This document shows, one piece after another, positions 39,073-64,000 of a DNA stretch of 64,000 nt. The notes under the pieces were generated by a model. It ran no database searches and was not told the DNA's origin. It saw nothing but the letters and a program-made list of their open reading frames with translations. Within the stretch, counting starts at the first letter, position 1. Every line of letters starts with the position of its first letter. Location: positions 75,887 to 139,886 of the forward strand of contig JASFQK010000015.1 in the NCBI GenBank assembly GCA_050115495.1. Reading direction: 5' to 3'. The DNA is from Phycisphaerae bacterium. Its GTDB lineage: Bacteria; Planctomycetota; Phycisphaerae; UBA1845; Fen-1342. Both the position numbers and the translations under genes were made by a program.

Positions 39073-39098
39073 TTGAGACATGATGCGACGCGGACGCG

Positions 39099-43749: not shown

Positions 43750-43877
43750 GCAGGTCTCTCCTTCCGTCGGACCACTGAGGATCGGTGCGCGCAGCGGCAT
43801 CTCTCGCCTGCGGGGCTCGGTGCACGCATCGTACGCGCATCGCCAGACTCCGTCCGGCCGCCGTCTGGGTATTCGCG

Positions 43878-45125: not shown

Positions 45126-45260
45126 GATCCAGCCGACCTCCTGCTGTTATAGTCCCTTTCCCGCCCCAGACACGGCTTGCGGCACTTCTCTCCCCGTACC
45201 GAGTTGGCATCCTGAAACGCATGCTCCGAAGCACACGCCGAGACCGTTGAGGTTTGCCTG

Positions 45261-47015: not shown

Positions 47016-47127
47016 GGTCAGCCCCTTTCACAAAGGACGTGCCTCTCGTGAGCGTGGGAACCGCCACGGAATCCCGCCCATGCCCCTGCGCTGAGCCGGA
47101 TTCCGGCGGATGCATCCCCACACCGCC

Positions 47128-47156
47128 ATGCTACCCAGCGGCCCGAGCCGGTTCAA
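47128..47156 (-). promoter_or_regulatory. Sigma70 promoter of the beta-helix gene
   Basis: TTGAAC-17 bp-TAGCAT on minus strand. Confidence 0.5.
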
Positions 47157-47763
47157 GGCACTTGAACGCACCACGGCGCTTCCCCGTGTCTGCCGATGTT
47201 AAGATGTGCACCGGCCCAATTTCATGGGGGACCTTCCGCAAAAAAACGGCCTTACCCCTGCCCTGGTCGGCGCGGCCGGGGCCGAACCAGTTACGCCGCG
47301 TACTGCCGCCTGAAGGCTTGCCCGCGTCCACCCGATCGGCAAACAGACTCGTTCGGACGCGACGGTGCCCGCTCACGCGCCACACCCGGCCCGTGACGCG
47401 GGGCGCCACGTGCTCCGTGCCAGCGTTTGCCCGCTTCGGCGGACGGAACACCCGCCGGCAGCGCGGCCCCGTTTCGCGGCGGCCCTGCCGTGGGGCCGTC
47501 CAAACCGGCGTCCAGGGCGATTCCTCGCTGATGCCTACCCGGCGGCCGCCGCGCTGCTGATCGTTGATTCTGGGGTCTCTCCCGCGGTCTGGCGCGCCTT
47601 CTGGGCGTACCGATGCTGTCGTTGCCGTCCGCAGCCGGCCAGCTGGTCGCCGGGCTCGCTTGACGATCCGCGGCGCTGCGGGCGCCGCCACGTGGCTGCG
47701 GGTCGCCAGCGATAATAGCGGCCAGGCGGAGTGGCGGAACCGCTAACAGCAGCCCTGGAAGCG

Positions 47764-48120
47764 TAACCCCTGTAGCGGCAAGGGTTTAGAAAAGAGGACC
47801 TCTAGGGTTGAGACAGCTTGCCAAGGGGTGTGACAAATCAGGCATCTGGGTATGCTTTGTCGCAAGCTATCGTAAATGCTTTCCGGGGCGTGGCTTAGAA
47901 AAGAGGACCTCCAGGGTTGAGACAGAGAGACAGTTTTGTCAATCAACATACATGAGGCTTCCCCTCCTGTTGAATAAGGGGTCTATATGTATGTACGCAA
48001 AATCGCTGTCTCACTGTCTCAGACCGATTGGTCCGCAATTTAAGCCCTTACGGCCACGTAGCTTATAGCGGCCCGGGGTGAGACAGCGGACCTCCATGTC
48101 CGTTGTCACAGAGTGTCTCA
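47764..48120. repeat. Iteron/AT-rich origin-like region
   Basis: 31-bp direct repeat (47786-47816, 47895-47925, 1 mismatch); TGAGACAG/CTGTCTCA units facing an AT-rich core 47934-48005. Confidence 0.7.
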
Positions 48121-48313
48121 CCAGCGGCTCACCCCCTGGTCTAGGAAGTCTAGGCGGGGAATTTGCAGGGGGGTTGTCGCAAAAAGAATGGCTTACCCCC
48201 GCGCTATGGGCCGCGGCGAGGGCCAAACCACGTCGCGCGTCGCGGGCATCGCGGGCAACTGGGGGACCCGTCAAGTGTATGGCTAGAGTACCTAGAACGC
48301 GCGGGTTGCCCGA

Positions 48314-50443
48314 TCAACCGACGGCAGACGCCGACGCTCGGCTGGGGTGCATGGCTCGGGCGAACGTGGTGAGGCTGTCGTTTGGGCGGGATGCACAGCG
48401 AGCCCAGGTGGGCGAGGCGGGCAGAATGGTATGGGGCCGCGTGGCGCCAGAGAGAACCCACGCCGGGCTAGGCTGCGTGGGGCCGTGGCAACTGGCCGTT
48501 GGGACATCGACGCGCCGACCGACGGTCGGACTGGGGTTACCGATCATACGTCGGTGGGGACGGCCGGCGGAAGGCGGAGTTGGAGCGCTCGCCTGTACCG
48601 TCGCGACGACGCCCGCCCGCACGGGCTCCGGCAGCGTCGGCCACGCGGTCACGACCGCCGCCAAGTCCGGGGCGCTGCTGGCAAGCTCCGCCAAGCAGTC
48701 CGCCAAGCGGTCGCCCGCCGTGGCCTTATCTCCCTGTTCCGCAAGTGCTTGTGATCCCGCCCCCGCAGCCTTCCAATCCGCGTCCATCGTGGCACTTACA
48801 GCAGCCCTGCCCGAAGGCCGATCATCACCGCTTGTGCCAGCTTGCGACCCGTTCGTACACGCGTTGCCGGAATCTGGTACAAGCGTTGGTACAAGAAAAC
48901 TCCGGCCGTCCGTGCCCGTCGCCTTCGCCCGCTGGGCGTCCGGCCGCCCGATCGGCGGAAGTGCCGGCAGAGCGTCGAGCGCACCGGCCACGTCGAGTAG
49001 CCGCGGGTCGGTGTACGTGTTCATCGTGAGTTCAATCGTGCTGTGCCGCATCGCGGCTTGCGCCACGCGCGGCGTCACCCCGCCTTTGCTCAAGTGCGTT
49101 CCGAAGGTGTGCCGAAGGGAATGCACGTCGAGCACGCGGCCGCGGTCGTCTCGCTTCGGTATGTCCGCCACCTCAAGGTCCCGGTCGAACGCCCGTACCA
49201 AGTCTGCCGGAACGTGAAACAGCGGCGTATCGTCCGGCAGCCGGGCCGGCAACGGCAATCCCTTCGCCTTCGCTGCGGCCCGCGCCGCGTCGAGCCGTTC
49301 CCCGAGCCAAGCGTTCAGGTCGGCCACCAAGTCGGACCGCAACGGGATTTCCGCCCCACGGCCGGCCTTCTCATCGGCCGCGGCGAGCACCGCATACGCC
49401 ACCCGCCCGTCAAGCTCAAGCTGTGCGACGGTCAGCGAAGCAAGCTCACCCTTTCGAAGCCCCGTCAGTAGCAGTGCCTTGTATATCAAGGCCCGCTCAC
49501 GGCCGCGGCGTTCAAGTTCGGCGATGAAATCGGGCCGCTTGGCGAGCACGTCGCGGGCGTGCGCTTCGGCCGCGCCGAGCGTGCTAAGCGTCAACGGCGC
49601 CCGTTTCCAAGTTCGTCGACTGCGATTGTTCTCACGCTTGCCGGCGTCGGCGAGCTTCACCGTCGGTCGGCCGTACTCGGCAAGCGGGCGCAGCCGCGCC
49701 ACGGTCAGCAGCCGGCGCAGCTCATCTTCCGTCAGTGCCCGACGCGGCCGGCGTTGGTCGGCCTTGCCGTCCCGCTTCGGCGGGCGGGCGAATGGGTTGG
49801 CCGTCAAGCGCTTCGTATCGACGCACCAATTCCCGAAGGCGCACGCCGCCAGTAGGTAGCCGTTCAGCGTGTTGGCGGGCATCCCTTCGGCTTCCCGAGC
49901 GTTCGCCCACTTCTCAAGCGCCGGCCGGCCCAGGTCGCGCAACAGCGTGAAGCCGCAATCGGCGATGACGCGCTTGAGGCGAAACCGGGCGTTGCGGACA
50001 TGCGCCGCGTTCGTCCGCGGCTTCCCGCCCTTGCCGCGCTTCGTGCCCAGATGCTCAAGGTAGGCGTCCACGTGCGTCGAAAGCGCGGTGGTCCGGTGGT
50101 CAAGCACGGCATCTTCCGCGGCCGTCAACGAACCGCAGCGGACCCGCTCGGCCCGTTTTTCAAGCTCGGCGAGCACGATCAACGCCGCGTCGGCGCTTCG
50201 GCAGCCCGTCGCCGTCTTGCGTACGTGCCCGGCCCCGTCGCGGTACTTCGCCGTGAACGTCCGCGCTTCGACAAGCACGCGGTCGATGTCGGCGTGCTCG
50301 CCGTCGGTCGGCGTCGTCACCTTCGCCGTGTGCTTGCGGCCCCGACGGTCGGTCCAGCGGGCGAAGCGCTCGCCTTTGCGGGTGAACACTTCCGCGCCCG
50401 ACGGCAGCGGCTTCGTGTAGGTTTCGCGGTACACGGTGCCCAT
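48314..50443 (-). CDS. Tyrosine recombinase/integrase with long C-terminal tail
   Basis: LTGLRKGEL, HSLRH, MRHS, TY; homologous to 39230-40804. Confidence 0.93.
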   Translation of the reverse strand: MGTVYRETYTKPLPSGAEVFTRKGERFARWTDRRGRKHTAKVTTPTDGEHADIDRVLVEARTFTAKYRDGAGHVRKTATGCRSADAALIVLAELEKRAERVRCGSLTAAEDAVLDHRTTALSTHVDAYLEHLGTKRGKGGKPRTNAAHVRNARFRLKRVIADCGFTLLRDLGRPALEKWANAREAEGMPANTLNGYLLAACAFGNWCVDTKRLTANPFARPPKRDGKADQRRPRRALTEDELRRLLTVARLRPLAEYGRPTVKLADAGKRENNRSRRTWKRAPLTLSTLGAAEAHARDVLAKRPDFIAELERRGRERALIYKALLLTGLRKGELASLTVAQLELDGRVAYAVLAAADEKAGRGAEIPLRSDLVADLNAWLGERLDAARAAAKAKGLPLPARLPDDTPLFHVPADLVRAFDRDLEVADIPKRDDRGRVLDVHSLRHTFGTHLSKGGVTPRVAQAAMRHSTIELTMNTYTDPRLLDVAGALDALPALPPIGRPDAQRAKATGTDGRSFLVPTLVPDSGNACTNGSQAGTSGDDRPSGRAAVSATMDADWKAAGAGSQALAEQGDKATAGDRLADCLAELASSAPDLAAVVTAWPTLPEPVRAGVVATVQASAPTPPSAGRPHRRMIGNPSPTVGRRVDVPTASCHGPTQPSPAWVLSGATRPHTILPASPTWARCASRPNDSLTTFARAMHPSRASASAVG

Positions 50444-50446
50444 GAT

Positions 50447-50656
50447 TCACCCTTCCCGCCGGCGCACGCGCCGGCACTCAATCCCGAAGTGTGCGGCGAG
50501 CTTGTCCGCCAGGTCCAGCCGAAGCGATTGCCCGCCGTTGACGAACCGCACCAGCGATACATGCGTCAGGCCCGTCGCCTTGGCCACGCCCCGGATAGAA
50601 TCGGCTTCGGCGAGCGATTCGCGGAGCAGTTGCGTCATTGTCTTGTGCGTCGGCAT
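50447..50656 (-). CDS. Cro/XRE-like HTH protein
   Basis: SIRGVAKATGL..SLVRFVNG..LRLDLADKLAAHFG. Confidence 0.8.
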   Translation of the reverse strand: MPTHKTMTQLLRESLAEADSIRGVAKATGLTHVSLVRFVNGGQSLRLDLADKLAAHFGIECRRVRRREG

Positions 50657-50711
50657 GGTAGCAATTGTTACCGCCCGACCGGCGTCCGTCAAGCCGGGAT
50701 TTCCTCATTCT

Positions 50712-50841
50712 GCACCCGCGGGGTGCGCCAGCACGTAACCCCGCGGGTGTCTGTGTACCCGTAGGGTACTGTGATACCGGGACTACACGCCCGTAAGCAG
50801 CGGGCGTGCACGCCCGGTTTGTCAGCGGGACTACACGCCCG
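50712..50841. repeat. Iteron-like repeats and palindromes (candidate origin of element 2)
   Basis: CGGGACTACACGCCCG at 50778 and 50826, palindrome CGGGCGTGCACGCCCG at 50801, GTACCCGTAGGGTAC at 50755. Confidence 0.6.
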
Positions 50842-50842
50842 C

Positions 50843-51274
50843 TCACGGCCGACCCCCTTCCGGCATCAGCAGCCGCCAAACCGACGGCCCGCCGGCCAGC
50901 GTGCCGCGCTTGACCCGTTCCACAAGCCCGGTTTCCCGGAGTCGCTTCAGCGCCCGACGCATGGCCGATTCGTCACGCCCGGCTCGCCGTGCCAGGTCCG
51001 CCACGCTCGCCGTTACGATGCCGTCCGGCTTGGCGTGCCGGTACAACAGCAGCCATGCGGCAAGCTCGGCCCGCGTACGCCGCGGAAGCTCGGCGTCGAT
51101 GAACGCATTCAGCAGCGCGAACCGTCGCCGCACGGCGCCGCCGCCCCGGCCGGGTTTCCGCTTCGGCTTCGGCTCGGCACCGGTCGAAGCGGGATCGTTG
51201 CGGCGTTCGCGCCGCTCGCCCAAGTCCATCGGCGGAAGCACTTCGCCCGGCGGGATGATGCGCGGGTCGGTCAT
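50843..51274 (-). CDS. Winged-HTH protein, candidate replication initiator
   Basis: AAWLLLYRH..SVADLARRAG..AMRRALKRLRETGLV. Confidence 0.75.
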   Translation of the reverse strand: MTDPRIIPPGEVLPPMDLGERRERRNDPASTGAEPKPKRKPGRGGGAVRRRFALLNAFIDAELPRRTRAELAAWLLLYRHAKPDGIVTASVADLARRAGRDESAMRRALKRLRETGLVERVKRGTLAGGPSVWRLLMPEGGRP

Positions 51275-52212
51275 TCATCGCCCCCGTCATCATCCGCCGC
51301 CGCGGGCGTCGAGCCCCACAGCGTCCGCAGCGATGCCGTGAGCTTGCCGCGGTCTGCGGGCGTCGCCGGCCCCGGCTCGGTCGGACGAAACGATTGAATA
51401 CGCCGCTCGAAACGCAAGTTCACGTCCACCGGCTCGCCGTGCCGGTGCTTCAGGCAACGCAGCGTCACGGCTTCGGGATCGTCGCGGCCCGGCACCAGCA
51501 CGTAAGCCGTGTCGGCCCCATATTCGAGTTCTGAGCTTTCACGGAAGCTCGCCAAGCTCAGCCCGTCGCCCACGTAAGATGAACGACCGCGTTTGTCTTT
51601 CGTCCGCGCCACCGCGGACACCGCCAGCACCGCGCATCCGGCGTCCGCAAATTGACGCAGGAAGTCCATCAGGGCATCGACCGAACCGCGTTTGTCGGCG
51701 TGCTCGCCCGGCGGCCGGATGCGTTGCAGGTAGTCCAGCGTCAGCAAGGCGCCGCCGAAGTCATCGGCCGTTGCGGCAATGTTGCCCAGGTCGAACGGCG
51801 GCGCGACGAACGCCAGCCGGTCGGCCACGGATTCGAGCGTCGCAAGCCCGCGGTCAATGCGGTCGGCGTGCTCGGCGCCGAGCGTCCGCTTGGCGATTGC
51901 GTCGAGCGGAACGCCCGACAGCCGGGCGAGCTGGCGGTCCAGTAGCACAGCCACGGACATTTCGACATTCGCGACCACGGCCCGTAGCGTCGGCTCGGCC
52001 CGCAGCGCGTCGATTACCCACTGCATCGCGAGCGCAGTTTTCCCGCCACCCGGCAAACCCCCGACCAGCACCACACGCCCCGGCCCGACTTCGACGGTTG
52101 CCAGTGCGCCGGTGCCAACCGCGTACAGCGGCGGCGCGGCCCCGCTGAACAGCGCATCGCGCCACGTATCGAGCACGTCGGCGGCGGTCTGGTACTTCGC
52201 CGTCGTGTTCAC
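51271..52212 (-). CDS. DnaB-like helicase (C-terminal domain)
   Basis: GLPGGGKT, NVEMS, LDYLQRI, SFRESSELEYGAD, LKHRHG. Confidence 0.88.
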   Translation of the reverse strand: MNTTAKYQTAADVLDTWRDALFSGAAPPLYAVGTGALATVEVGPGRVVLVGGLPGGGKTALAMQWVIDALRAEPTLRAVVANVEMSVAVLLDRQLARLSGVPLDAIAKRTLGAEHADRIDRGLATLESVADRLAFVAPPFDLGNIAATADDFGGALLTLDYLQRIRPPGEHADKRGSVDALMDFLRQFADAGCAVLAVSAVARTKDKRGRSSYVGDGLSLASFRESSELEYGADTAYVLVPGRDDPEAVTLRCLKHRHGEPVDVNLRFERRIQSFRPTEPGPATPADRGKLTASLRTLWGSTPAAADDDGGDE

Positions 52213-53276
52213 GGCGCACCGCCCTTCCCGGCATTCGCCGAAGTGTCGGCCGGCCTCGGCCGTACGGCGATTACTTCGCCGCTGAACACACCGCACACGT
52301 CGCGGACGCCCGGTTGTGCGGACGCCCAGCCGTTTTCGATTGCTCGGCGGATGTCCGTCGGCGTCAGTCCGCAGTCAAGCGCCGCCTCAGTGAGCAGCGC
52401 TGCGCAGAGCCCCAGCGGTGCGCCCAGTTCGCCCAGGTTTGCCGCCGCGGAGTAGCACCGCCGGTGTCGGTCACCCACGGATGCACCTTCGCGGATAAAG
52501 TCGAGCGTCGCCCGGTTGAGTTTGTTCGGCGCGTCGCCGCTCCCCAGGTGCTCGGCGCGGGCGTCGGCTTCGCGTTGCACTTGGGCAGCCGCTTCGGCCC
52601 ACAGCGCCGCCGCCGGCTCGCTTCGGTACGTCGGCGCCGGAAGCTCGAAGTCCGCGGGTTCCGCGGCGAGCTTGAGAATCGCATCGGCGCCCAGGTGCAT
52701 CAGTTCATCGACCGATAGCCGCCGCTTGTGCAAGCCGGTTCTCGGATGCCGGCTGTTCGGTGCCCGGAAGCACCGCACCTTGTCGTACACGCCCGCGTCA
52801 ATGGTCGCCCCGGCAAGCTCGGCCACGGCTTCGGCGAAGCGGCGAGCGATGCGGTGGAAGTCGCACGCGGGCGCCGGTTGCCATGCGGCCGACGGGACGC
52901 CCAGGTGAAACCCCTTGCCACCGCTCAGGAAGGCGAGCACGTCATCTTCAGCGATGCCGAGTGAGCCCGTGAGCGCCACGCACAGCCGGCGGGCATCTTC
53001 GAGCGCGACCGGCAGGTCGCCTTCACGATCCACGTCGAACCATACCCACGGCGCCCAGCACGGACCCGAGAATCCCGCCGTCGAGCCGGTCGCGGCCAGG
53101 TGTTCGCGGAAGTCCGCGCCGAACACGAACGCGCTCAAGTACGCTTCGCGGTGGCACTCGGCCCGCGGGTCACATGCGGCGTATGCCGCCAGCGCGGCGC
53201 GGGCATCGACCAGCCGGCGCGGCTGGTGACAGTCGCCGAGCACCCGGAAGCCGAAGCGGTAATCAGCGGCGTTCAT
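52209..53276 (-). CDS. Archaeo-eukaryotic-type primase/polymerase
   Basis: WFDVD, SGGKGFH, D-x-GVYD..FRAPNSRH. Confidence 0.8.
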   Translation of the reverse strand: MNAADYRFGFRVLGDCHQPRRLVDARAALAAYAACDPRAECHREAYLSAFVFGADFREHLAATGSTAGFSGPCWAPWVWFDVDREGDLPVALEDARRLCVALTGSLGIAEDDVLAFLSGGKGFHLGVPSAAWQPAPACDFHRIARRFAEAVAELAGATIDAGVYDKVRCFRAPNSRHPRTGLHKRRLSVDELMHLGADAILKLAAEPADFELPAPTYRSEPAAALWAEAAAQVQREADARAEHLGSGDAPNKLNRATLDFIREGASVGDRHRRCYSAAANLGELGAPLGLCAALLTEAALDCGLTPTDIRRAIENGWASAQPGVRDVCGVFSGEVIAVRPRPADTSANAGKGGAP

Positions 53277-53499
53277 GGTCGGTCCCTTGAGCTTCGATCA
53301 GGCACCGCAGCATGTCGGCCACGTCGCCCAGGTTGGCCCGGTTCGCTTCGGCCAGGTCGCGAATTGCGGCGGCCACGTCGGCGAGTCCGTCGCGCAAAGA
53401 CACGGCCACAAGCTCGATTGCGCCCGGTCCGACGGCGCCTTCCTTCCCGAGTTCCTTCGCGGCGAAACGCACGGCGTTGGCGAGTGCTTCGCGGTTCAC
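53263..53499 (-). CDS. Small hypothetical helical protein
   Basis: GTG start overlapping previous stop; fills operon gap. Confidence 0.55.
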   Translation of the reverse strand: MNREALANAVRFAAKELGKEGAVGPGAIELVAVSLRDGLADVAAAIRDLAEANRANLGDVADMLRCLIEAQGTDHERR

Positions 53500-54038
53500 G
53501 ATGCACCCCCTTCCGGCTTGGCGTTCGCCCCGAAATCGAAGCTCGCATCGCCCGGGTCTGTACCGTCGGCGGGTGCGAACGGGTCGCGCTCCGGTTCGTC
53601 TACGCGCAGCACGTCGAAGCGGACAACGCGGTTGTGTTCGGTGCCGTCGTCGGCGCGGCGCAGCGCCACGCGCACCTTGCACCGGATGCGCCCCGCCGGA
53701 ACCGACGCGGATTCGAGCTTGTCAAGCGAGTCGAGTCCGAGCTTGAGGCAATCGCGTTTCGTCTGCGGCAGCGCCGCTGGCGTGAGCCAGCAATCGTGAA
53801 ACAGCGCCCGTCCGGCGTGCTCGCCTTCACACACGTCGAAGCGAATCTTGACACCCGGCGTGCCAGTGCGGGCGGCGAATAGCTCCACGCCGTGAACGTG
53901 GCATTCGTAGGTTCCGGCCGGCAGCGGCGCGAAGTCCGCCGCGGCTTCCGTGCGGTTCCACGCATCGCGCAGATTGCCGCTTTGCCCGTTAGCGAGAATG
54001 TCTGTGAGCCGCCGTCGCGGTTGCGCGTTGTCGCTCAT
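53496..54038 (-). CDS. DUF669-like protein (SSB-like)
   Basis: DFAPLPAGTY, F-x-V-x-EGEHAGR, NRV, acidic Phe-containing tail. Confidence 0.75.
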   Translation of the reverse strand: MSDNAQPRRRLTDILANGQSGNLRDAWNRTEAAADFAPLPAGTYECHVHGVELFAARTGTPGVKIRFDVCEGEHAGRALFHDCWLTPAALPQTKRDCLKLGLDSLDKLESASVPAGRIRCKVRVALRRADDGTEHNRVVRFDVLRVDEPERDPFAPADGTDPGDASFDFGANAKPEGGAS

Positions 54039-54295
54039 CGCGCCGCCCCCTTCGCGACACGCACCGGCGGGCAGTCGGCCGCAATCCAGTCCAGCAGTTC
54101 GTCCCGGCGCCAGCGGCGCATGCCGTTGAGCTTGAACCCGAACGGCATTTTGCCGGCATCGCAGAGCCGGTAGACCGACCGGGCCGAGCACCTGCCGAGC
54201 AGCGCGCACACGTCCCGGATGCCCAGCAATTCCGCGGGTACGGCCGGCCGCGGCTGAGGTTCGTCGGAATCAAACGGGGGAAGCGCCGCTGTCAT
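54035..54295 (-). CDS. AlpA-family excisionase/regulator
   Basis: LLGIRDVCALLG..SVYRL..GKMP..RRWRRDELLDWI. Confidence 0.85.
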   Translation of the reverse strand: MTAALPPFDSDEPQPRPAVPAELLGIRDVCALLGRCSARSVYRLCDAGKMPFGFKLNGMRRWRRDELLDWIAADCPPVRVAKGAAR

Positions 54296-54516
54296 CGGGC
54301 ACCCCCTTGCCGTCGGGCGTCGATGCGGTTCAGCTCGTACCGCACCTGTGCGATTGCGGCGTTGTCGAACAGCCGGGCGTTGCCCGCGTAGGCACGCGGA
54401 TGGATGTGGGAACGTGCCCGCAGAATGCGGCACACGCGGTCAACAGGTACGCCCAGCTCTGCGGCAATGACGCCCACTGTGACCAGCTTCGGGGAATGAT
54501 GTTCTTCGGCTTTCAC
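54292..54516 (-). CDS. Small MerR/excisionase-like HTH protein
   Basis: TVGVIAAELGVP..AGNARLFD. Confidence 0.7.
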   Translation of the reverse strand: MKAEEHHSPKLVTVGVIAAELGVPVDRVCRILRARSHIHPRAYAGNARLFDNAAIAQVRYELNRIDARRQGGAR

Positions 54517-54642
54517 GCGAACACCTTTCGATCTGGGAAGGGCACCATCGCCCTTCGCCAGTCTTCAGGTGTTCACGGGGGTACGCGTAAACCCTTGTGG
54601 CGCAACGCTCACGCGGTCATGACTGGTCATGACCGATGATGG

Positions 54643-55737
54643 TCAGACCCGTTTGTGGTATCTTCTGGGGCTCTGGCCTTCGGTGATCGCGCTGTCTTCG
54701 TTGTCGCTGTCCGCCTGTTCCTGCACGAGCTTGTCCAACTGCGCCTGCCGCCGCTCAACGTCACCGGCCGTGCAATCCCCACCTACCCCTTTCGCGACTT
54801 CCTGCGGCGTCGCGTTGGGGTGGTTCGACCGATACTCCGCAATCCGCCGGAACAGCTCCTGTTCCCGCTGGTCAAGCGCATCGTCCGCCGCTTCCGCTGC
54901 CTCACGGTGGGCGCGCAACTGCGAACCCGCGTTGTCGCCCGCGGGACTCAGGTAGTCTTGCAGGTCAAGCGCGATGGGGTCAACGTCCTTGCCCGTCGTC
55001 GCTGCCAAGTCACTAGCCGCCTTCAGCCGCTTCTGATTCGCCTTCCATGCTGGCGATTCCGTCACCACGCCCTTACTGCATCCGACGGCGCAGCGTACCT
55101 CTTCTGCGGTGTCGTGTGGCCGACGGATCAGGTGTTGCATAATCTGCTGTTCCGCAATCTCACGCTTGACGCGGGATCGCTTTCGGCTGACGTCTGCCGG
55201 GGCACCACTTTCCGCTTGCTCCCGCAGCCCTTCCCGCACTGCGTCCCTGATCTGCTCACCAGTCGGTTTGATCGAAGACCAAAACTCGGGATCGTTGAAG
55301 GCCGGCGGGGTCGGATTTAGCAGGCGCTCCGTTTCGTCCAGTGCAGCCGCGACATGCTCGAATCGCTTGGTGATATCGGCCCGCCGCTGTTCGTCACCTT
55401 CCTTCATCGCCAACACCGCCTGTTCCAACTCGTCCGCGGTTTCCTTGAGGTCCGGGTAGGCGTCCACGAGCGCGCGAAGCCGCTCGAAGTCACCACGCAT
55501 GGCGTCGCCAAGCGCCGCGCCCATGTCGTGATAGACGCGCAGGGGCTCGGATAATGCCGCAAACGCCGTATTCTGCGCAGCGTTCACCGGCCCCATCACC
55601 GCCCGCACCGCGGCACCAAACGCCTGTAGTCGCATTTGCGCGCGACGCAATGCCGCCTGCGACTTGGGATCGTCCTTGATTGCGTCCAGGTACGCTTGTC
55701 CGGCTCGGATCGGCCGGCGTGCTTCATCGTCTGACAT
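54643..55737 (-). CDS. Hypothetical protein with HTH-like C-terminal segments
   Basis: 364-aa ORF; TAEEVRCAVGCSKG and ATPQEVAKGVG segments. Confidence 0.65.
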   Translation of the reverse strand: MSDDEARRPIRAGQAYLDAIKDDPKSQAALRRAQMRLQAFGAAVRAVMGPVNAAQNTAFAALSEPLRVYHDMGAALGDAMRGDFERLRALVDAYPDLKETADELEQAVLAMKEGDEQRRADITKRFEHVAAALDETERLLNPTPPAFNDPEFWSSIKPTGEQIRDAVREGLREQAESGAPADVSRKRSRVKREIAEQQIMQHLIRRPHDTAEEVRCAVGCSKGVVTESPAWKANQKRLKAASDLAATTGKDVDPIALDLQDYLSPAGDNAGSQLRAHREAAEAADDALDQREQELFRRIAEYRSNHPNATPQEVAKGVGGDCTAGDVERRQAQLDKLVQEQADSDNEDSAITEGQSPRRYHKRV

Positions 55738-55788
55738 GATCCAGTCCCTGCACTGGCCCTGATGGAGAAGGAACGCGGGGCGGGGGCG

Positions 55789-56286
55789 TTACACGTAGTT
55801 GTTTTCCTCGTCGGCGTCGTAGACGCCCAGCAGGCCGCCAATCCCGCCGGCGGATTCGAGCGAGTTCACTTGTCCGTGCTGCCCCACCAAGTCCAGTCCC
55901 CACGTGTACTTACGAACGACATCGTCGCTGCCATCCAGTTCGAGCAGCATCAGCCAGCCGCTCCACACGAACCGGCGGACCTCCGTCGGCTCCGCCTCCC
56001 ATTCCTCCGCCTGATCATCCCAATCATACACCGCCTTCTCGATCCGGCGGCCCAGATAATCATACGCGAACTCGACCTTCTGGGCGCTGGCCTGCGGCGA
56101 GTTGCCGGGACTCACGCGGATCAACCGGTTCTCGACGTCCCATTCGTACGACACGGCCGTCGGCGACGGATCCAATTGCAGCAAACCGAGGAACGGGCTG
56201 GTGTCGAAGTTGTTGATCGAGCCGTCGCCGTTGATGTCGCCACACAAGCAACAGCCATTGGGGCACCGGACATCAGCACTCGACTG
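55789..56286 (-). pseudogene. Fragment of an RHS protein containing a dockerin-like half
   Basis: GDINGDGSINNFD, YEWDVENRL, YDYLGRRIEK, RKYTWGLDL, AGGIGGLL; no credible start, ends before the RHS core. Confidence 0.8.
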
Positions 56287-56300
56287 CTACGGCTTCGGGC

Positions 56301-56498
56301 TCAGCTCACTGGCGAGACGTGCGTTCGGGCCGTCCGATTGCCGCTGGCGTCGTACTCGTAGGTGATCTGTGCGCCGTTGTCGAAAGTGACGTTGGTTAGG
56401 CGGTGGTGGGCGTCGTATTCGAAGATTGTTGCGGCAAGAGCGACACCGGCGCCAAGACCCATGAGAAGGGAGAGGGTGGCGAGGATCTTCGGCGTCAT
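56301..56498 (-). CDS. Small secreted YD-repeat protein
   Basis: GGAG RBS, signal peptide (ALA), FEYDAHHRLTNVTFDNGAQITYEYDASGNR. Confidence 0.8.
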   Translation of the reverse strand: MTPKILATLSLLMGLGAGVALAATIFEYDAHHRLTNVTFDNGAQITYEYDASGNRTARTHVSPVS

Positions 56499-56921
56499 AA
56501 CTACGTTCTCCACTGCGGTGCTCGCTCGCACCGCGTCATAGAGCGCGATGGTAGCGCCCAGCACGTTACTTCCCGCAGCCATTGCAGCCGGTGCGAGCGG
56601 ACGCGGGTTCCGGCCGTGGACCTGGGCTCGGGTTGTGCAACGTTGAAAGCAGCACGGTTGCGCCGGAGTAAGCGGCGGCAGAAAACCGCGCATCCCATGC
56701 TTCACCACATCGATCAGCCAACGACTCGCTCACACGTGGTCATTCTGCGCCCGCAGTGGCGGCATTCGCAACGCCGGATGATCCGGTCGCCGCGACGCCT
56801 TGTCCACAAGACGAGCAGGGTGTCTGCAACCGCAACGTGGGCACCCGCTGCGCTGTGCTTCCAGCAAGACGGCCTCCGCTCCGGAACACGTCACCCTCAT
56901 GATCCCCTGGCGAAAACCCGG

Positions 56922-56950
56922 TTGACATGCACGTCCGAGAATGCTATTAT
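56922..56950 (+). promoter_or_regulatory. Strong sigma70 promoter upstream of C39-RHS genes
   Basis: TTGACA-17 bp-TATTAT with extended -10 TG. Confidence 0.75.
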
Positions 56951-57419
56951 TGAACTCGCCGTTTTTTCACATGAGGGAAACCTGCCCCACGGCCAGGTGC
57001 TTGCGGCTTGATGGCCGCGTCCGGGCCGCCCGGGGCAGGAGCTTGAAGGGGACACGTCATGCGACCCTCCACGGCAATCCCATTCCTGCCCGCGGCACTT
57101 TGGCCGCTCCTGTCGCTGCCGACCGGTGCCAATGCCCAGGGCGCCAGAACCGAAGCAAACGAGACTCCCTCCAAAGAAAAGAGGAGAGCCACGTGATCTC
57201 CAGTGACCTGAAGATGATGGGACGCGTGGGGGCAACTGGAACGTGTAACGGAACGTTATCTTGCGCCGCCAAGGGGCGGTTGCAGCATCCGACGAACGAG
57301 ATTTCATCGCGTTCATGCGCCCAGGCGCATCGCCCCAGCCATGTCGTGTTGTCGGATTACCACCGAGCTTCGTCGGACATCTCCCCACACGCGTGAGCGA
57401 GGGCAAGGGGACGGGTGCT

Positions 57420-57989
57420 ATGGCATCCCGACAAATCGCCGGTTTGGTTGTTGGCCTCGTACTGATAGGTGGTGTCGTCTGGTACACCGGGCATGCGCAT
57501 CCCGTGGCTACCCGTGCAGTCTTCGTTGATCGCACGTTACGGACCAGTCACCTCAGTTGCGGGCCGGCCGCGCTCATGGCCGTCGTCGAAGCTCACGATA
57601 GGGAGGCAGCTTGCCGATTGCGCGAGTTGCTGGACGGCGATGAACCGGCTAATCGCCCGGTCAGCAGTCTCTATGAACTGGCCACCTGGGCCAGACGCGC
57701 CGGTCTTCGGCCGGTTGCCCTGAAGGTGGACACGAGGCAGCTTCCGCGTTTGCCGCTGCCGGTGATTGTCCACGTGTCGCCCGATCACTTCCTGGCGTTG
57801 ACAGCCGTGAGCGATGACCGGGTCTGCGTCATCGATCAGGGCCCGATGATGCGCGAGATCCCACGGCGAGATTTCGACCGTCAATTTCGCGGATACGTGC
57901 TTTGCGTGCAGAGGATAGACGCGCCGTTTAAACGTCCCTCTCGAGGAGAAACCACATGTCACCACAGAAGCGCATATTCAGATCCGTAA
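57420..57989 (+). CDS. Stand-alone C39-family cysteine peptidase with N-terminal TM
   Basis: SCGPAAL, LPLPVIVH..DHF, VID; hydrophobic N-terminus; no ABC domains. Confidence 0.85.
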   Translation: MASRQIAGLVVGLVLIGGVVWYTGHAHPVATRAVFVDRTLRTSHLSCGPAALMAVVEAHDREAACRLRELLDGDEPANRPVSSLYELATWARRAGLRPVALKVDTRQLPRLPLPVIVHVSPDHFLALTAVSDDRVCVIDQGPMMREIPRRDFDRQFRGYVLCVQRIDAPFKRPSRGETTCHHRSAYSDP

Positions 57990-60900
57990 ACGCGCACCCC
58001 ATACTGAGCTGCATCCTGGCGGGTGGTTCATGCGCCTTACTTATCGCAGGGCTGGCACGGCTGTCCGATCGGGGAGACATCTCAGACCTCTCCCGCATTG
58101 ACGATGCCCGCGTGCTCACCGACGCCGAGATGAAGCAGGTCAGAGCGGGGGGGCTGAAGCCCTTTGCCCGCCGGCCACGAGGACCAGCCGCAACAGCGTG
58201 CGATCCGTGCCCAGAATGCAGCATTGCCACCAGTAGCGGGAGGAGCCCGGAGGGAACCGCACCTTGGCTGGACGCCACCACAGCCGGCGTGTACGACCGG
58301 GTCTGGATGATGTCCGTCGGCGCCCCCGCAACTGGCCTCTCGCTGGTGTTGACGTACAACGTTGACATGGCCGATGGCACAAACAGCATCGTGGACACCA
58401 CGCTGCCCCGGGGCTGGACGCACAGCTACAACGGATACCTCCTGCAGCGCGGTAACGACTTCATCTGGATCCGCGGGGACAGCGAGGTTGTCACCTTCAC
58501 CCGACGTGGTGGCGTCTTCACTCATTCCACGGGGCAGTTCTACGACCTTACCGTAACCGATGGCACGCCCAAGGTGAGGTTGAGGGACGGCACAGTTTAT
58601 GAGTTCCAACAGGAGGATGTGCCCTGGCAACCCCTGGGTGCCGCCTTCCTGTTGGAGTCAATTCTCGACCCGAACGGCCGTGCGACCCAGCTTACCTATA
58701 ATAACGGATTATTGACACACGTCACCGATCCGTTCGGAAATGCCCTGCACTTCGACTACAATCCCGACAGCATGTTGTCGGCCGTCACCGCCTCAGGCCG
58801 CCAGGGCACCTTTGAGTACGACACTGGACACCTGTCGGCAATGGTGCTTGCAGACGGCACGCGTGTTGAGTATACATACAACTTCCTCGCGCAGATTACA
58901 GAAAAGACCATCATCGGCAACCGGAACGGAAGCCGCACCTACTACGTGGATTATGACCAGGGTAGCAAGGCCTGTTGCCTGCGGGACTCCGCGGGGACCA
59001 CGGTCGCCAGCCAGAACAGCAACACCGAATGGGAACCGGACTACGAGGAATCAGTGGCGACGGGCGAGATGCATTACCTGCCCGGAACAGCCACCGTGAT
59101 CGATGGTCGCGGCAACGAGTGGCACCATACGTACGACTCGCGCGGTAACATGATCGAAACCCTCAATCCGCGTGGGCACTTCAAGACCATCGAATACGAT
59201 CCAGCAACGCTGCTGCCGGAGCGCATCATCGACGAGAACGGCCACGAGACCTACTACGAATACGACGAACGAGGCAATCGAACGTTGCTGCGCGACGCCG
59301 AGGGAAACGAGACCACGTACGAGTACGAGCTGATCAGCGGGGAGTACGACCGGCTGGTGCGCCGCATTGAGCCTGATGAAGACGTGTGGGAATATGTCTA
59401 CGACGAGAATGGAAATCTGATCGAGGCAATTGACCCGCTCATCGAACAGCCAGAGGACGCAACCGTCACGTATGAGTATTATACCGGGGCCCCGTACCAG
59501 GGTTTGCTGTGGAGGAAAACCGACCGCAACGGCAACGTGACTGAGTGGGAGTATTACCCGGACGGCAACGTCAAGAAAGAGATCGACCCGGGCGGTTGTG
59601 AGACCGAGTATACCTATGACGCGTTCGGCAACGTGCTCAGCCGTACCGTCCACAACGACACCGGCGACCAGACCACCAGCTATACCTACAACGCGCGCGA
59701 CCGCGTGGACACGGTGACCGATCCGGTCGGCAACACCACCAAGTATGAGTACGACAGCGTCGGCAACCGGATCGCCGTGTACACCTGTTGGATCGACGAA
59801 AGCACCTACCGCTCCGTCACGCGCTACGAGTATGACTCGCGTGATCGGCTCGTCAGGACCATCGAAGACGACGGCGGTCTCGACCGCATCACGGAGTACG
59901 ACTACGACAACAACGACAACCGCATCGAGGAAATCGATCCCAACGGCGTGGTCACCCAGTTCGAATATGACGAACTCAACCGGGTGGTGCGGACCCTGCG
60001 CGACCCCGGCGGCCTCGAGATCGAGCGGGAATATGGCTACGACCCGGTCGGAAACAAGATCACGGAGATTGATCCGAACGACCATACTGCAACGTACGAC
60101 TACGACGTGTTGAACCGGCTGACATGGATCACCGATCCACTTGGGAACGAGACGGAGTACCGCTACTTCCCGCCGGGCGGCGGTGGCTGCGGAGGCTGCG
60201 GCACGCCGGGATCGAGCAACATCCACTGCGTCATCGACGCCGAGGACAAGGTAACCAAATACGAGTACGACCAGCTCGACCGGCGAACCAGGGAGATCCG
60301 GCAGATCGGTGTTCAGGACTGCGACGCCCCCGAGGATGGTGACGACGCCGTCACCGAGTACACCTACGACCCGAACGGCAACCTGCTGTCGACCACTGAT
60401 CCCAATGGAAACACGACCACCCTCACGTATACGGTCCGCGGCGAGGTCGAATCCGTCTCCAACGGCTGCGACGAGACGACCACGTACACCTACGACTGCG
60501 CCGGCAACCACATCACGGAAGAACCACCCAACGGAAACATCATTCACTACGAGTACGACCTGAACAACCGGCTCGAGCACGTCTACGACACGATCGGAGA
60601 CTTGGTCGACTACACGTACGACTGTGTCGGCAATCGCATAACCGAGGCCGACGCCGTCGGGCCGGCGACCACCTACGAATACGACAATCTCGACCGCGTG
60701 GCCATGGTGACCGACCCGATGGCTGAGGAAACGGAGTACGAGTACGACGCCGTGGGAAACCTCACCAAGATCATCGACCGCGAGGACAACGAAACCGTTT
60801 ATGAGTACGACAACGCCAGCCGCCGGACCGTCTCCAGGATCTGGCCGCAAAACGGCGGTGACCCGGCCGAGACGTCGTACGAATACGACGACGCCGGCAA

Positions 60901-63874
60901 CCTGCTCAGCATTACCGACGGTAACGGCAACACGACGGCGTACACATACGACGTGGCCAACCGTCAGATCACGCAAACCTTCGCCGACGAAACCGAGCAG
61001 CGCTACACCTACGACGGCGTGGGCAACCCGCTCACCTACGAGGATAACATGGGTGAGGGTGATATACCCGGCACCGGGAACGTCACCACCTACACGTACG
61101 ACGACCTGCACCGCCGGATTCGTAGCGAATACGAAGATGGCAGCGCCGACGTATTCGCCTACGACAAGGGCGGGCGGATGCTTTCGGCCGACAACGATCA
61201 TTCCCACGTGGGTTTCACGTACGACTGCGCCGACCGGGTACTCACCAGCACGCAGACCGACCTGCCGCAAACCTACTCCTATGCCGTCACTTACATTTAC
61301 GACGTGGCGGCCAACACCCGGACAATCCACTATCCCAGCGGCAAGGTCGTGGTCGAGACGCGTGATCTGCGCGACCGCCTCAGCGACGTCACCGACGCGG
61401 CCTCGTACACCTACGACTTGGCCAATCGTGTTCTCACCAGGACCTTCGACAACGGCACCGAAGCCCGCCACAGCTATAACGACAACGACTGGATCACGGA
61501 GCTGCGCCACGTCGCGACCGATGGGACCACCACCTTCGCCGGCTTCGCCCACGACTACGACCGCGAGGGTAATCGCCTCAATGCGCAGAATCTGCAGGAG
61601 GTGGTCGCCTACGACGACGCCAGGCCAGCAACGCACTCGGAGGTGTACGCCTACGACGACATTCACCGTTTGATCGACTACAAGCGTGGCCAGTGGGTGA
61701 GCGGTGACGTGCCCGCTCCCCGGCGGCTCCGCACCTGGCAGATCGACAACGTCCACAACTGGGAGGAGTTCGGTATCCACGACCTCGATACCGGCGAGGA
61801 CGAAACGTATTGCAACTCGATCAACCAAATGAACGAGTACGACGACTGGTCGACCGATGGCCAGCCGCCCGTGCCCGACGACGACGGTCTGCCGGACGAC
61901 TTCATGGTCAGCCCCTGCCCGTCGTCACCGCTGGGCGCTGGTGGTCACCGGCCGGCTCTCCGACCCGAGGCTTCCGAAACGCTCATTTCGCCGGACTTCG
62001 AACGCGGCGCCCCAACCGCCGAGGACAACGGCGGCCGCGACACCGGCTTCAACCGCGCCCACGACAAGAACGGCAACCTGGTCGACGACGACGTCAACGA
62101 ATACTACTATGACTACCAGACCACAATGGGCAGCGTCCTACGGGCGCAGAACCGCCTGACGATGGTCAAGCGCAAGAGTGACAGCGCCGTCCTGGGTGAA
62201 TACTGGTACGACGCCCTCGGCCGCCGCATCCGCAAGCTTGCCGACGGTTTGTCCACCGTGTATGTCTACACTCGCGACTGGCGCGCGATTGAGGAGTATG
62301 AGGACGGTGCTCTCGCCCGCAGCTACGCTTACGGTGGGTGGATCGACGAAGTCCTCGCGATGGACCGTGCCGCGGAGGCCGACCGCCTCTACTACCACGC
62401 CAATGCCCTGGGCAGCATCATCGCGGTCACCGACGGCGGCGGCGACGTGGTTGAGCGCTACACCTACGACGCTTACGGGGCGCCGCTGATCGAGTCCTAT
62501 GCCCAGCCGCCGGACCAGGACGAGGCGTACGGTTCCGATCTCACGCCGCTGCCCCCGCCGTCGGACGCGGTTCAGATCCTGGCCGACGATTTCTCGCTGG
62601 CCGAGACGACGTTGATCACCGGCCTGCGCTGGTGGGGCGCCTACGCGTACGGAGACGTCCCCGACACGGACGATTTCACGCTGCGGTTCTACGACGAGGC
62701 CGATTTCTTCCCCGGCTCGCTGGTCTGGGAGGAACACGTCGGCGATCAGGTCAGCCGCTTGCCCACCGGTCGGATCATCACGACCGTCGCAGGCGATCTG
62801 GCCGAGTACGTCTACGAGATGAAGTTCGCCACACCGTTTTGGGCCGGCGCGGGCACATGGTACTGGGTGTCGGTCGTCAACAACACGGTCGCCCAGCCGC
62901 TGACTTGGGGATGGGAAACGGCCGGCGAAGGCAATGTCTACGCGGCCTACAGCCTCGACGGCGGCCCGTGGCAGTCTTTCGGCGAAGACCTGACCTTCCA
63001 GTTTCTCACCGACCGCTCCGCCGTCGGAAACCCCTACCTCTTCACCGCCCGCCGATACGACGCCGAAACTGGTTGGTACCACTATCGCGCGCGCTACCTA
63101 GATTCCGTCACTGGGCGGTTCGCCGTCCGCGATCCGATGGGTCCTTGGGGCGATCCCACGAATCTTGGCAATACGTATACGTATGTTGGCTCTAACCCTT
63201 GGAGCAGTATCGATCCCTCTGGCCGGGAAACAAGAACTATCAAGGGAACCATAATCGAAGGGAATACCATACGTGAGGTCGAGTTTAACAACAATAACAA
63301 TCTAGGCGGCCGAATGGAATACGAGGTGACGTTCGACCTCACATGTGTTGGCACTAAAGCCAAGTACACCGGCCCCCCAAACGTAAAATATAACCTAAAA
63401 TCACGCTGGGACAACATCAATTTAAGCTACAAGACAATGGGGGCTCAAGTTGTGGATTACGTCCGTGTCACGCGCGTGGACGTAACAAGGCGAGATTGCC
63501 CCAAAGGTTGGACTGGAGAAATACTGGTTGTCAGCGTGACAATAACGTGGTATCACAAAGGCTGGGTTGGTGTAAGTATATTCAGGCTTGGCGGAAAGGA
63601 ACAAAAGAAAGGCGAGCACCAGAAAACAGTGACGATAGACTGCTGCAAGAAGAATGACTGCGATGACGGTGCCGACACGGAACCAGAGCCGGACGACTCC
63701 GGCCGCAGACCTGCTGGTGTCCCATCCGGGTTCGAGCCACAGGACAATCCCCCGCCGCTTAGACGAATACTCACAGATCCGTGGATAGATGGGTGCAACC
63801 CGCCGCCCATAAGGGTAGGGCCGCGATACAGCGGGATGATGTACCCGGTGCCTGAGTGCTATCTGGACCAGTAG
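57956..63874 (+). CDS. Large RHS/YD-repeat protein with variable C-terminal domain
   Basis: GWTHSY, many YD repeats, YYHANALGS, PYLFTARRYD, YHYRARY, NPWSSIDPSG; own RBS GAGGAG. Confidence 0.95.
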   Translation: MSPQKRIFRSVNAHPILSCILAGGSCALLIAGLARLSDRGDISDLSRIDDARVLTDAEMKQVRAGGLKPFARRPRGPAATACDPCPECSIATSSGRSPEGTAPWLDATTAGVYDRVWMMSVGAPATGLSLVLTYNVDMADGTNSIVDTTLPRGWTHSYNGYLLQRGNDFIWIRGDSEVVTFTRRGGVFTHSTGQFYDLTVTDGTPKVRLRDGTVYEFQQEDVPWQPLGAAFLLESILDPNGRATQLTYNNGLLTHVTDPFGNALHFDYNPDSMLSAVTASGRQGTFEYDTGHLSAMVLADGTRVEYTYNFLAQITEKTIIGNRNGSRTYYVDYDQGSKACCLRDSAGTTVASQNSNTEWEPDYEESVATGEMHYLPGTATVIDGRGNEWHHTYDSRGNMIETLNPRGHFKTIEYDPATLLPERIIDENGHETYYEYDERGNRTLLRDAEGNETTYEYELISGEYDRLVRRIEPDEDVWEYVYDENGNLIEAIDPLIEQPEDATVTYEYYTGAPYQGLLWRKTDRNGNVTEWEYYPDGNVKKEIDPGGCETEYTYDAFGNVLSRTVHNDTGDQTTSYTYNARDRVDTVTDPVGNTTKYEYDSVGNRIAVYTCWIDESTYRSVTRYEYDSRDRLVRTIEDDGGLDRITEYDYDNNDNRIEEIDPNGVVTQFEYDELNRVVRTLRDPGGLEIEREYGYDPVGNKITEIDPNDHTATYDYDVLNRLTWITDPLGNETEYRYFPPGGGGCGGCGTPGSSNIHCVIDAEDKVTKYEYDQLDRRTREIRQIGVQDCDAPEDGDDAVTEYTYDPNGNLLSTTDPNGNTTTLTYTVRGEVESVSNGCDETTTYTYDCAGNHITEEPPNGNIIHYEYDLNNRLEHVYDTIGDLVDYTYDCVGNRITEADAVGPATTYEYDNLDRVAMVTDPMAEETEYEYDAVGNLTKIIDREDNETVYEYDNASRRTVSRIWPQNGGDPAETSYEYDDAGNLLSITDGNGNTTAYTYDVANRQITQTFADETEQRYTYDGVGNPLTYEDNMGEGDIPGTGNVTTYTYDDLHRRIRSEYEDGSADVFAYDKGGRMLSADNDHSHVGFTYDCADRVLTSTQTDLPQTYSYAVTYIYDVAANTRTIHYPSGKVVVETRDLRDRLSDVTDAASYTYDLANRVLTRTFDNGTEARHSYNDNDWITELRHVATDGTTTFAGFAHDYDREGNRLNAQNLQEVVAYDDARPATHSEVYAYDDIHRLIDYKRGQWVSGDVPAPRRLRTWQIDNVHNWEEFGIHDLDTGEDETYCNSINQMNEYDDWSTDGQPPVPDDDGLPDDFMVSPCPSSPLGAGGHRPALRPEASETLISPDFERGAPTAEDNGGRDTGFNRAHDKNGNLVDDDVNEYYYDYQTTMGSVLRAQNRLTMVKRKSDSAVLGEYWYDALGRRIRKLADGLSTVYVYTRDWRAIEEYEDGALARSYAYGGWIDEVLAMDRAAEADRLYYHANALGSIIAVTDGGGDVVERYTYDAYGAPLIESYAQPPDQDEAYGSDLTPLPPPSDAVQILADDFSLAETTLITGLRWWGAYAYGDVPDTDDFTLRFYDEADFFPGSLVWEEHVGDQVSRLPTGRIITTVAGDLAEYVYEMKFATPFWAGAGTWYWVSVVNNTVAQPLTWGWETAGEGNVYAAYSLDGGPWQSFGEDLTFQFLTDRSAVGNPYLFTARRYDAETGWYHYRARYLDSVTGRFAVRDPMGPWGDPTNLGNTYTYVGSNPWSSIDPSGRETRTIKGTIIEGNTIREVEFNNNNNLGGRMEYEVTFDLTCVGTKAKYTGPPNVKYNLKSRWDNINLSYKTMGAQVVDYVRVTRVDVTRRDCPKGWTGEILVVSVTITWYHKGWVGVSIFRLGGKEQKKGEHQKTVTIDCCKKNDCDDGADTEPEPDDSGRRPAGVPSGFEPQDNPPPLRRILTDPWIDGCNPPPIRVGPRYSGMMYPVPECYLDQ

Positions 63875-64000
63875 GTAGGGCGGGCTCTGCCCAATGGTAC
63901 TAACCTTGTCACGCGGCTCGTTTCTTGGTGTTTGCTCGTGGTGGTGGAGCGGTGGGCAGCTTGCTGGGGCGTTTCAGCTTGCCGTGGCCTTTGTTTTTGG

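Follow-up and report, generated by a model that had tools for sequence, protein, structure and literature searches.

The window analysed here, a stretch of 64,000 nucleotides, lies at the end of contig C15 (JASFQK010000015.1) in the genome (92% complete) of a Phycisphaerae bacterium. Close to the end of the window, a small gene for a stand-alone peptidase of family C39 is followed on the same strand by a large gene for an RHS protein, and the two open reading frames (ORFs) overlap by 34 bp, as an earlier note on this DNA had pointed out. The note had proposed that the RHS protein is tethered to the membrane and is released or matured by the dedicated C39 peptidase. In this study we describe the pair and its relatives, in which the C39 and RHS parts are encoded either by two genes (split) or by one (fused). 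The features of the locus are collected in Table 1.

Table 1. Features of the C39/RHS locus, with positions in the window.
Feature	Position	Strand	Evidence
Stand-alone C39 peptidase, 189 amino acids from ATG, without transporter domain	57420..57989	+	PF03412 profile match, AlphaFold2 model, Foldseek
Catalytic triad Cys47, His123, Asp139	57558-57560, 57786-57788, 57834-57836	+	alignment with homologues
N-terminal hydrophobic helix of C39, residues 6-22	57435..57485	+	sequence, model
RHS/YD-repeat protein, 1972 amino acids, no PAAR domain	57956..63874	+	PF05593, TIGR01643, TIGR03696
Ribosome-binding site (RBS) GAGGAG before the RHS ATG (57956), and the 34-bp overlap	57942..57989	+	sequence
Signal anchor or signal-peptide h-region, RHS residues 16-32, then a 21-residue spacer	58001..58051	+	sequence
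Double-glycine-type leader L54-G65: L(-12) E(-8) M(-7) V(-4) A(-2) G(-1)	58115..58150	+	homologue alignment
Predicted mature N-terminus: basic stretch and Cys-rich motif C82, C85, C88	58151..58219	+	alignment
DUF7901 domain within the Rhs-associated core, flanked by the YDAYG and NPY motifs	62498..62929	+	profile match, alignment
Variable C-terminal domain, 216 amino acids, after the DPSG core motif	63224..63874	+	comparison with relatives
Half palindrome like repetitive extragenic palindromes (REPs) after the RHS stop; end of a multi-copy insertion sequence (IS) from 63892	63875..64000	+	genome contig ends
Sigma-70-like promoter TTGACA-17-TATTAT, 11 of 12, extended TG, ~470 bp upstream of the C39 start	56922..56950	+	consensus match only
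ORF of 45 codons resembling a signal peptide with a short tail	57059..57196	+	read by eye

The profile search placed PF03412 on residues 42-165 of the C39 protein with a score of 57.1 bits against a cut-off of 22, and neither an ATP-binding cassette (ABC) nor any other domain was found beside it in the ORF; the architecture of the peptidase-containing ABC transporters (PCATs) and of the AMS exporters (ABC transporters for maturation and secretion) is not present. The best Foldseek matches of the AlphaFold2 model (mean predicted local distance difference test score, pLDDT, of 80) were the peptidase domains ComA-PEP (3k8u) and LahT147 (6mpz), and the protein combines the C39 fold with the Cys-His-Asp triad of the family. 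These three residues were retained in every complete split and fused C39 sequence that we aligned. The description of a transporter-less C39 protein with Cys, His and Asp and an N-terminal transmembrane segment proved correct. Moreover, basic residues precede the N-terminal helix in all five split homologues (5/5), which points to an N-in/C-out topology; the positive-inside rule is the basis for the periplasmic location proposed here.

In the RHS protein, the YD repeats (TIGR01643) and the Rhs-associated core (TIGR03696) scored over their cut-offs and DUF6531 follows the N-terminus, whereas the profile searches found no PAAR domain, so that the protein does not have the architecture of the PAAR-Rhs effectors. 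Three basic residues (K/R) precede its hydrophobic segment, and the spacer leads to LTDAEMKQVRAG|GL, where the bar denotes the predicted cut. The motif behind the hydrophobic segment, LTDAEMKQVRAGG, is encoded at 58115-58153, and the order of basic stretch, hydrophobic segment and leader motif is as previously noted. The hydrophobic positions -12, -7 and -4 of a double-glycine leader are occupied by L54, M59 and V62. According to the accessible part of PMC6363468, these three leader positions are the recognition determinants of LahT150, and Glu at -8 is dispensable.

A phmmer search with RHS residues 1-260 yielded 111 RHS relatives, which by eye fall into three N-terminal kinds: proteins with a signal peptide ending in Ala-x-Ala and directly followed by a basic, Cys-rich start, proteins with a signal peptide and passenger domains, and proteins with a hydrophobic helix, a spacer and a leader. 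The last kind comprised 11 of the 111 relatives by the pattern L(-12)..M(-7)..I/V(-4)xGG/GA/GS/AG, compared to a mean of 0.002 in shuffles, a control that flatters the pattern because it was written after these sequences had been seen. In the six-frame ORFs of the genome (8.7 million residues) the pattern occurred at two places, one of which is the RHS site. We then compared 15 leader-type rows, namely the window, its counterparts in genomes G221 and G710, the 11 proteins found by phmmer, and P0122. Position -12 is Leu in 14 rows and Met in one, position -7 is Met and position -4 is Ile or Val in all 15, and the residues at -2/-1 are GG in nine rows, AG in three, GA in two and GS in one. The spacer measures 16-23 residues in 14 rows and 10 residues in the one with a mis-called start. 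The leader model TIGR01847 scored 13.8 bits on G221, 13.4 on G710 and 12.4 on P0095, all under the cut-off of 15.7, and its matches in these homologues end at GG.

Because the last Gly of the motif aligns with Trp at +1 in the closest relatives (codon GGG here versus TGG there), AG was placed at -2/-1, and the cut is predicted between nucleotides 58150 and 58151, i.e., at G65|G66. The caveat of the earlier note that the strict register leaves GG one residue later was thus borne out, and its cleavage region at residues 65-66 could be refined to this bond. A cut after GG was set aside, since homologues and codons put the last Gly at +1; a shift by one residue may occur. The cut site of the leader aligns with the Ala-x-Ala signal-peptidase site of the leaderless sister proteins, and a basic, Cys-rich start follows both, the predicted mature N-terminus being aligned with the mature start of the signal-peptide-type sisters.

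The split pair of a C39 gene and a leader-type RHS gene was found in four genomes of two families, i.e., in this genome (G000), G221 (locus L003), G710 (L004) and G791 (L171), the last of which belongs to another family. The leader is conserved in the RHS protein adjoining the C39 gene in all four (4/4), and the C39 proteins of the window and G710 are 49% identical. Two named relatives with a split pair are labelled as Planctomycetales and Phycisphaerales metagenome-assembled genomes. A Pfam search for C39 in 221 genomes gave matches in 38, and two of the 29 loci examined adjoin an RHS gene (G221 and G791); this search, independent of the RHS one, thus brought in the G791 pair, the RHS protein of which, P0009, was already among those of the RHS search. 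Of 72 genomes in the family, the RHS N-terminal profile matches 23 and PF03412 eight. Three of these eight have frames shorter than 260 amino acids, all directly before a leader-type RHS gene, and the other five carry PCATs or C39 proteins of other types, beside which no RHS gene was seen. No C39 gene was found upstream of other RHS relatives in the 18 control regions fetched (0/18). In 14 of them the RHS N-terminal domain was seen, in no case with a leader at its N-terminus, and ~13 of these 14 carry 0.7-5 kb of upstream DNA; four were unresolved. PF03412 had no match in six genomes of the same genus. A metagenome scan returned L006, the same element as the G221 pair, and the unrelated L007, and a plasmid search returned 14 records, the annotations of which read ABC transporter or C39-domain protein.

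C39 and RHS are also joined in single proteins. PF03412 was present in six of the 25 proteins found with RHS residues 1-330, and five more fusions are P0097 and loci L076-L079 of another family of the phylum. Both arrangements, which the earlier note had proposed to survey, thus occur. With a five-sequence C39 alignment, the only longer C39 relatives obtained were two PCATs; the fused forms were missed by it and were found from the RHS side. Most of the fused proteins have the order signal peptide, tetratricopeptide repeat (TPR)-like region, C39, leader and RHS. In 11 fused rows a leader-like segment lies 11-13 residues after C39, ending with GG or GA before CCG in five rows and with GR or GK in six. 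The profiles of split and fused C39 match at 98.4% probability. In the AlphaFold2 model of the natural fused stretch of L076, residues 131-150, which include the leader, have a pLDDT of 96-97 with a short helix at 143-146, and past the predicted cut 152|153 the pLDDT is 61 and then 40; the model was judged from confidence summaries, to which likeness to solved peptidase domains may contribute. Structure comparison of the fused model with 6mpz returned the C39 fold (Z 13.6, root-mean-square deviation 2.5, 117 residues aligned), a comparison that carries no information on the position of the leader. Because the signal peptides of the fused forms look cleavable, the cut is probably more than a release step: it would take off a pro-region as well and may mature the N-terminus. 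One fused relative ends in a Tlde1 domain. In a quick tree, which excludes L077 and L079, the fused RHS proteins formed one group (support 92) and the leader-type RHS proteins three, with the window and G710 in different ones; the C39/leader module is hence either an ancient one that was lost several times or one that was exchanged among lineages of RHS.

The existence of fused C39-leader-RHS genes, together with the overlap of the two ORFs, could mean that the pair is a single fused gene broken by a frameshift, or an artefact of assembly, which we find scarcely credible. The RHS gene has an RBS of its own and encodes its own anchor helix, a feature missing at this point in the fused forms, and the pair is split in 4/4 genomes: an overlap of 34 bp also occurs in G791, and in G221 and G710 the C39 gene stops before the RHS start, which is preceded by in-frame stops. 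In a public run, a contig of 7,114 bases spans positions 56800-63903, including the junction, with no changed letter and no gap; this run may be the source sample, and its contig checks the assembly only. In addition, the RHS protein of the window is 34-37% identical to signal-peptide-type RHS proteins and only 23-25% to fused ones. Judged by these comparisons, the C39/RHS pair did not simply arise by breakage of a fused gene, and the two genes are separate, as originally read.

The RHS shell is 66% identical to that of G221 over residues 1-1510, and the C-terminus is unlike those of the relatives compared. The DUF7901 insertion was not seen in the relatives G221, G710 and P0122 when the sequences were compared. 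The C-terminal 216 amino acids had no match in Pfam or Atlas, which shows neither absence nor novelty. A variable C-terminal domain on a conserved shell is the arrangement of polymorphic toxins, and by analogy with the behaviour of the RHS family the domain is probably an antibacterial toxin.

From these results we consider it likely that the C39 protein acts as an extracytoplasmic private signal peptidase, which frees and matures a Sec-exported polymorphic RHS toxin. As far as the sequences indicate, both proteins would enter the inner membrane via Sec/YidC by their N-terminal helices, and the C39 domain and the RHS body would become periplasmic, each about 25-30 residues from the membrane. 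By homology with the peptidase domains of PCATs, C39 would bind the hydrophobic face of the leader (L54, M59 and V62) and would cut after A64-G65. The alignment suggests that the RHS protein would thereby be freed from its anchor with the same N-terminus as signal peptidase I gives its sisters, and it is in this sense that C39 would be a private signal peptidase. In the fused relatives the same cut would occur in cis, shedding the signal-TPR-C39 pro-region. The YD shell would enclose the variable C-terminal domain, to be released at the DPSG core motif, an arrangement established for RHS proteins (see, in part, PMC13018210). The earlier proposal of a tethered RHS protein released or matured by a dedicated C39 peptidase is hence supported by conservation, linkage and fusions, with the cleavage itself predicted. 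Its label "RiPP-style" (a RiPP being a peptide made by ribosomes and then modified post-translationally) suits the removal of a leader and nothing further, as no modifying enzymes were seen.

Several observations weigh against this interpretation. Genomic context is known for four of the 15 leader-type rows, and the genomes that bear the pair are kin and not independent. In G712 (87% complete), a close RHS gene lies at a contig edge and no C39 match was found. A public RNA run (8% of words) gave short pieces in the RHS body only and none over C39 or the leader, and no immunity-like gene follows the RHS gene of G791, which weakens the toxin label. The other points concern the motif, the peptidase and the secretion genes of the organism. 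The -2/-1 residues of this leader are AG, and the canonical double-glycine sites GG, GA or GS (as given in the accessible part of PMC10885120) are found in 12 of the 15 leader-type rows. The AG rows besides the window, P0085 and P0114, are fragments of 73-77 amino acids of unclear status, and curated leader models (TIGR01847 and kin) gave no match for the leaders of the window, P0085 and P0114. By eye, G32-L33-A34 is a possible signal peptidase I site in this RHS protein.

The family could work as proposed with this copy being degenerate: the Ala at P2 would then prevent or slow down cleavage, leaving release of the RHS protein to signal peptidase I (at G32-L33-A34) or to nothing at all. The non-canonical AG fits such a decay, as do Ala-Arg in place of the aromatic residue that follows the h-region in homologues and the setting of the locus, which lies in an integrative region that holds RHS fragments and has an IS immediately behind the RHS stop. 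However, P0085 and P0114 have AG too and offer no GG as an alternative, and the triad, the anchor, the RBS and both ORFs are intact. Moreover, the fused relatives vary at P1 too (GR, GK), and therefore this C39 group may have shifted specificity. Degeneration of this copy thus seems unlikely, although it is the alternative that we take most seriously.

The residue six positions before the catalytic Cys is Arg41 instead of the usual Gln. Its absence, remarked on in the earlier note, extends to most of this C39 group: Gln occurs at that position in only one of seven split C39 sequences and is also lacking in the fused ones shown. The lack of Gln in 6/7 split C39 proteins would suit a peptidase that binds the leader without cutting it, in the role of a tether or a chaperone for folding, comparable to the C39-like domain (CLD) of HlyB, and the Foldseek list includes the inactive CLD 3zua. 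However, Cys, His and Asp are kept in all complete sequences aligned, and small residues are conserved at -2/-1. In the LahT147 complex, the equivalent Gln lies 4.3 Å and His101 2.7 Å from the oxyanion (accessible part of PMC6363468); His101 may fill the oxyanion role there, and therefore the loss of Gln need not mean a dead C39 protein. Binding without cutting is accordingly an improbable role for these proteins.

No gene of a type VI secretion system (T6SS; PAAR/VgrG) and no PCAT was found in the window as far as it was scanned, in line with the earlier note; however, both exist elsewhere in the genome. TssB, TssC, Hcp, IcmF, two VgrG-like matches and one PAAR match lie in small groups on other contigs (C1:120414-123355, C2:13928, C6, C10 and C17), with the only PAAR match on C6. 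TssC is also present in G221, G710, G712 and G628. These genes, and the DUF6531 domain after the RHS N-terminus, would be expected if the RHS protein were a T6SS effector with a T6SS-type transmembrane segment and cytoplasmic processing. Such an effector is very hard to reconcile with the lack of PAAR in the RHS protein, with a helix that aligns with the Sec signal peptides of the sisters, and with G516 (90% complete), which has the fused form and no TssC match. Five secretin matches over the cut-off were also found on other contigs of the genome. Secretin matches fall in very long frames in G000 (C25:37490, 4378 amino acids), G221 (C9:62251, 5220) and G710 (C32:9943, 2036).

The PCAT of the genome lies on C29, where positions 46000-56700 hold a lanthipeptide cluster with LanC- and LanB-like genes and an adaptor with a C39-like tail. 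This raises the alternative that the leader motif serves another peptidase, e.g., this PCAT, and that the C39 protein has another substrate, such as a downstream PEP-CTERM-type protein or, as proposed for Tox-PL-C39 toxin domains, a protein of the target cell. A PEP-CTERM gene follows the RHS gene in 3/3 other pair loci (after a lipoprotein-like gene in G221 and G710, alone in G791), and C39-like domains have been described as toxin domains of polymorphic toxins (PMC3482391, accessible part). On the other hand, G221 has no other PF03412 match, the peptidase of a PCAT is cytoplasmic whereas this leader lies behind a membrane anchor, and the leader directly follows C39 in the fused forms. We therefore judge another substrate to be distinctly improbable.

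No immunity gene is visible after the RHS gene of the window because the assembly breaks at the multi-copy IS, which sits 18 bp after the RHS stop. This IS inserts into GTAG-type REP-like palindromes with an apparent 9-bp target duplication, and the genome contains nine left ends and 11 right ends of it, together with 27 intact REP-like copies (one pattern). The IS ends lie at the ends of contigs C2, C4, C5, C7, C8, C24, C28, C29, C31, C38, C39, C45, C47, C51, C62, C75 and C80. Directly after a right end, C80:263-1279 encodes a secreted protein with a dockerin-like end that is 37% identical to the PEP-CTERM protein after the RHS gene of G221. C80 may continue the locus across the IS, but its 9-bp target repeat differs from that of C15 by one base, and that of C2 matches exactly.

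Upstream, the region that ends with the C39/RHS pair starts at tRNA-Gly (39000-39072), the 3' end of which is duplicated at 39099-39138. Tandem integrative elements with two integrases lie at positions 39000-55737. The region also contains genes resembling those of helicases and primases as well as fragments of RHS genes, and the guanine-plus-cytosine content falls to 0.60-0.62. A 44-bp copy of the 3' part of the tRNA at C41:5838-5881, adjoining another, leaderless RHS gene, could be the far attachment site of this region. At 55789-56500 (minus strand) there are an orphan RHS fragment, which lies behind a dockerin-like stretch, and a short ORF with a signal peptide and YD repeats; both are divergent from C39. 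Two promoter-like sites were found by consensus match against 0.2 expected, and the 45-codon ORF is possibly the remnant of a gene for a secreted protein.

Other C39-like genes of planctomycetes were also seen. Small secreted Cys-rich ORFs near membrane-anchored C39-like genes (L005:476-967 and 2247-2867; L073:2229-2792 and 2773-5109) carry a leader-like segment ending in GG or GS, a similar logic with small substrates. Another stand-alone C39 type (L069:3949-5016, L070, L177, L183, L184 and L186), which retains the Gln and has several membrane helices at its N-terminus, is common in the order and has no RHS gene nearby.

Compared with known systems, the C39 protein shares with the C39 domains of PCAT/AMS exporters (ComA 3k8u, LahT147 6mpz and PCAT1) the fold and the Cys-His-Asp triad, including the distance of 16 residues from His to Asp, and its leader shares with theirs the hydrophobic -12/-7/-4 and the small -2/-1 positions. 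It differs from them in that there is no ABC transporter, that the N-terminal anchor implies an extracytoplasmic site, that the leader is internal and lies behind a membrane helix of a 1972-amino-acid RHS substrate, and that Gln is mostly absent, with Ala as P2 in this copy. FapD, the periplasmic C39 protein of the Pseudomonas functional-amyloid system, requires its catalytic Cys; the Fap proteins do not have canonical C39 sites, and its target is described as unclear in the accessible part of PMC5557850. Like FapD, the protein studied here would be a free-standing, Sec-exported C39 peptidase active outside the cytoplasm. However, the FapD equivalog NF058616 scored 17.4 bits against a cut-off of 330, no Fap genes were seen, and a near-canonical leader stands in the adjacent gene. 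PrsW, ZU5 and HINT are named as releasing peptidases of polymorphic toxins in the accessible part of PMC3482391, where C39-like domains (Tox-PL-C39) are listed as toxin domains and not among such N-terminal peptidases. The likeness lies in the place of the peptidase, at the N-terminus of an RHS toxin or close to it, and in its proposed release of the toxin during export, but that part describes no leader motif, and here the peptidase is a separate gene or is fused before the leader. C39 is absent from one short supplement of that paper, the architecture supplement of which could list C39-RHS fusions. Sec-exported RHS/YD proteins, i.e., the sisters and the bacterial teneurin-like proteins (PMC13018210), share the YD shell, the core motif and the variable C-terminus and often have a downstream immunity-like gene, whereas in the present pair N-terminal processing is predicted to occur in trans by a dedicated C39 peptidase; C39 is not mentioned in the accessible text of that paper. 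No description of the C39-leader-RHS pairing was found in the literature searched, a search that left most subscription papers outside. The pair is real, conserved, built from known parts and apparently undescribed. The fused proteins bear both Pfam labels in databases, and therefore the architecture is annotated, even if unexplained.

The maturation and release of Sec-exported RHS toxins are poorly understood. The locus offers a 189-residue enzyme and a residue-level prediction of the cut on the neighbouring gene, so that the questions of RHS release and of the substrates of periplasmic C39 peptidases become testable. It would take the leader/peptidase pair of bacteriocins beyond cytoplasmic exporters of peptides, to an extracytoplasmic toxin carrier of 200 kDa, and would add a candidate to the releasing peptidases catalogued for polymorphic toxins; natural stand-alone double-glycine proteases with shifted specificity might also serve as tools for leader removal. 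We further raise, tentatively and with some doubt, the possibility that C39/double-glycine pairs, both split and fused, form a route, widespread and so far undescribed, by which Sec-exported RHS toxins are processed. In the split form, the folded toxin would then wait at the inner membrane, to be set free only upon the cut by its private peptidase, so that export would be uncoupled from deployment, and loss of the module would restore ordinary release by signal peptidase. If so, periplasmic C39 peptidases would gain their first clearly predicted substrate and site, with an altered P2/P1 specificity (AG, GR and GK).

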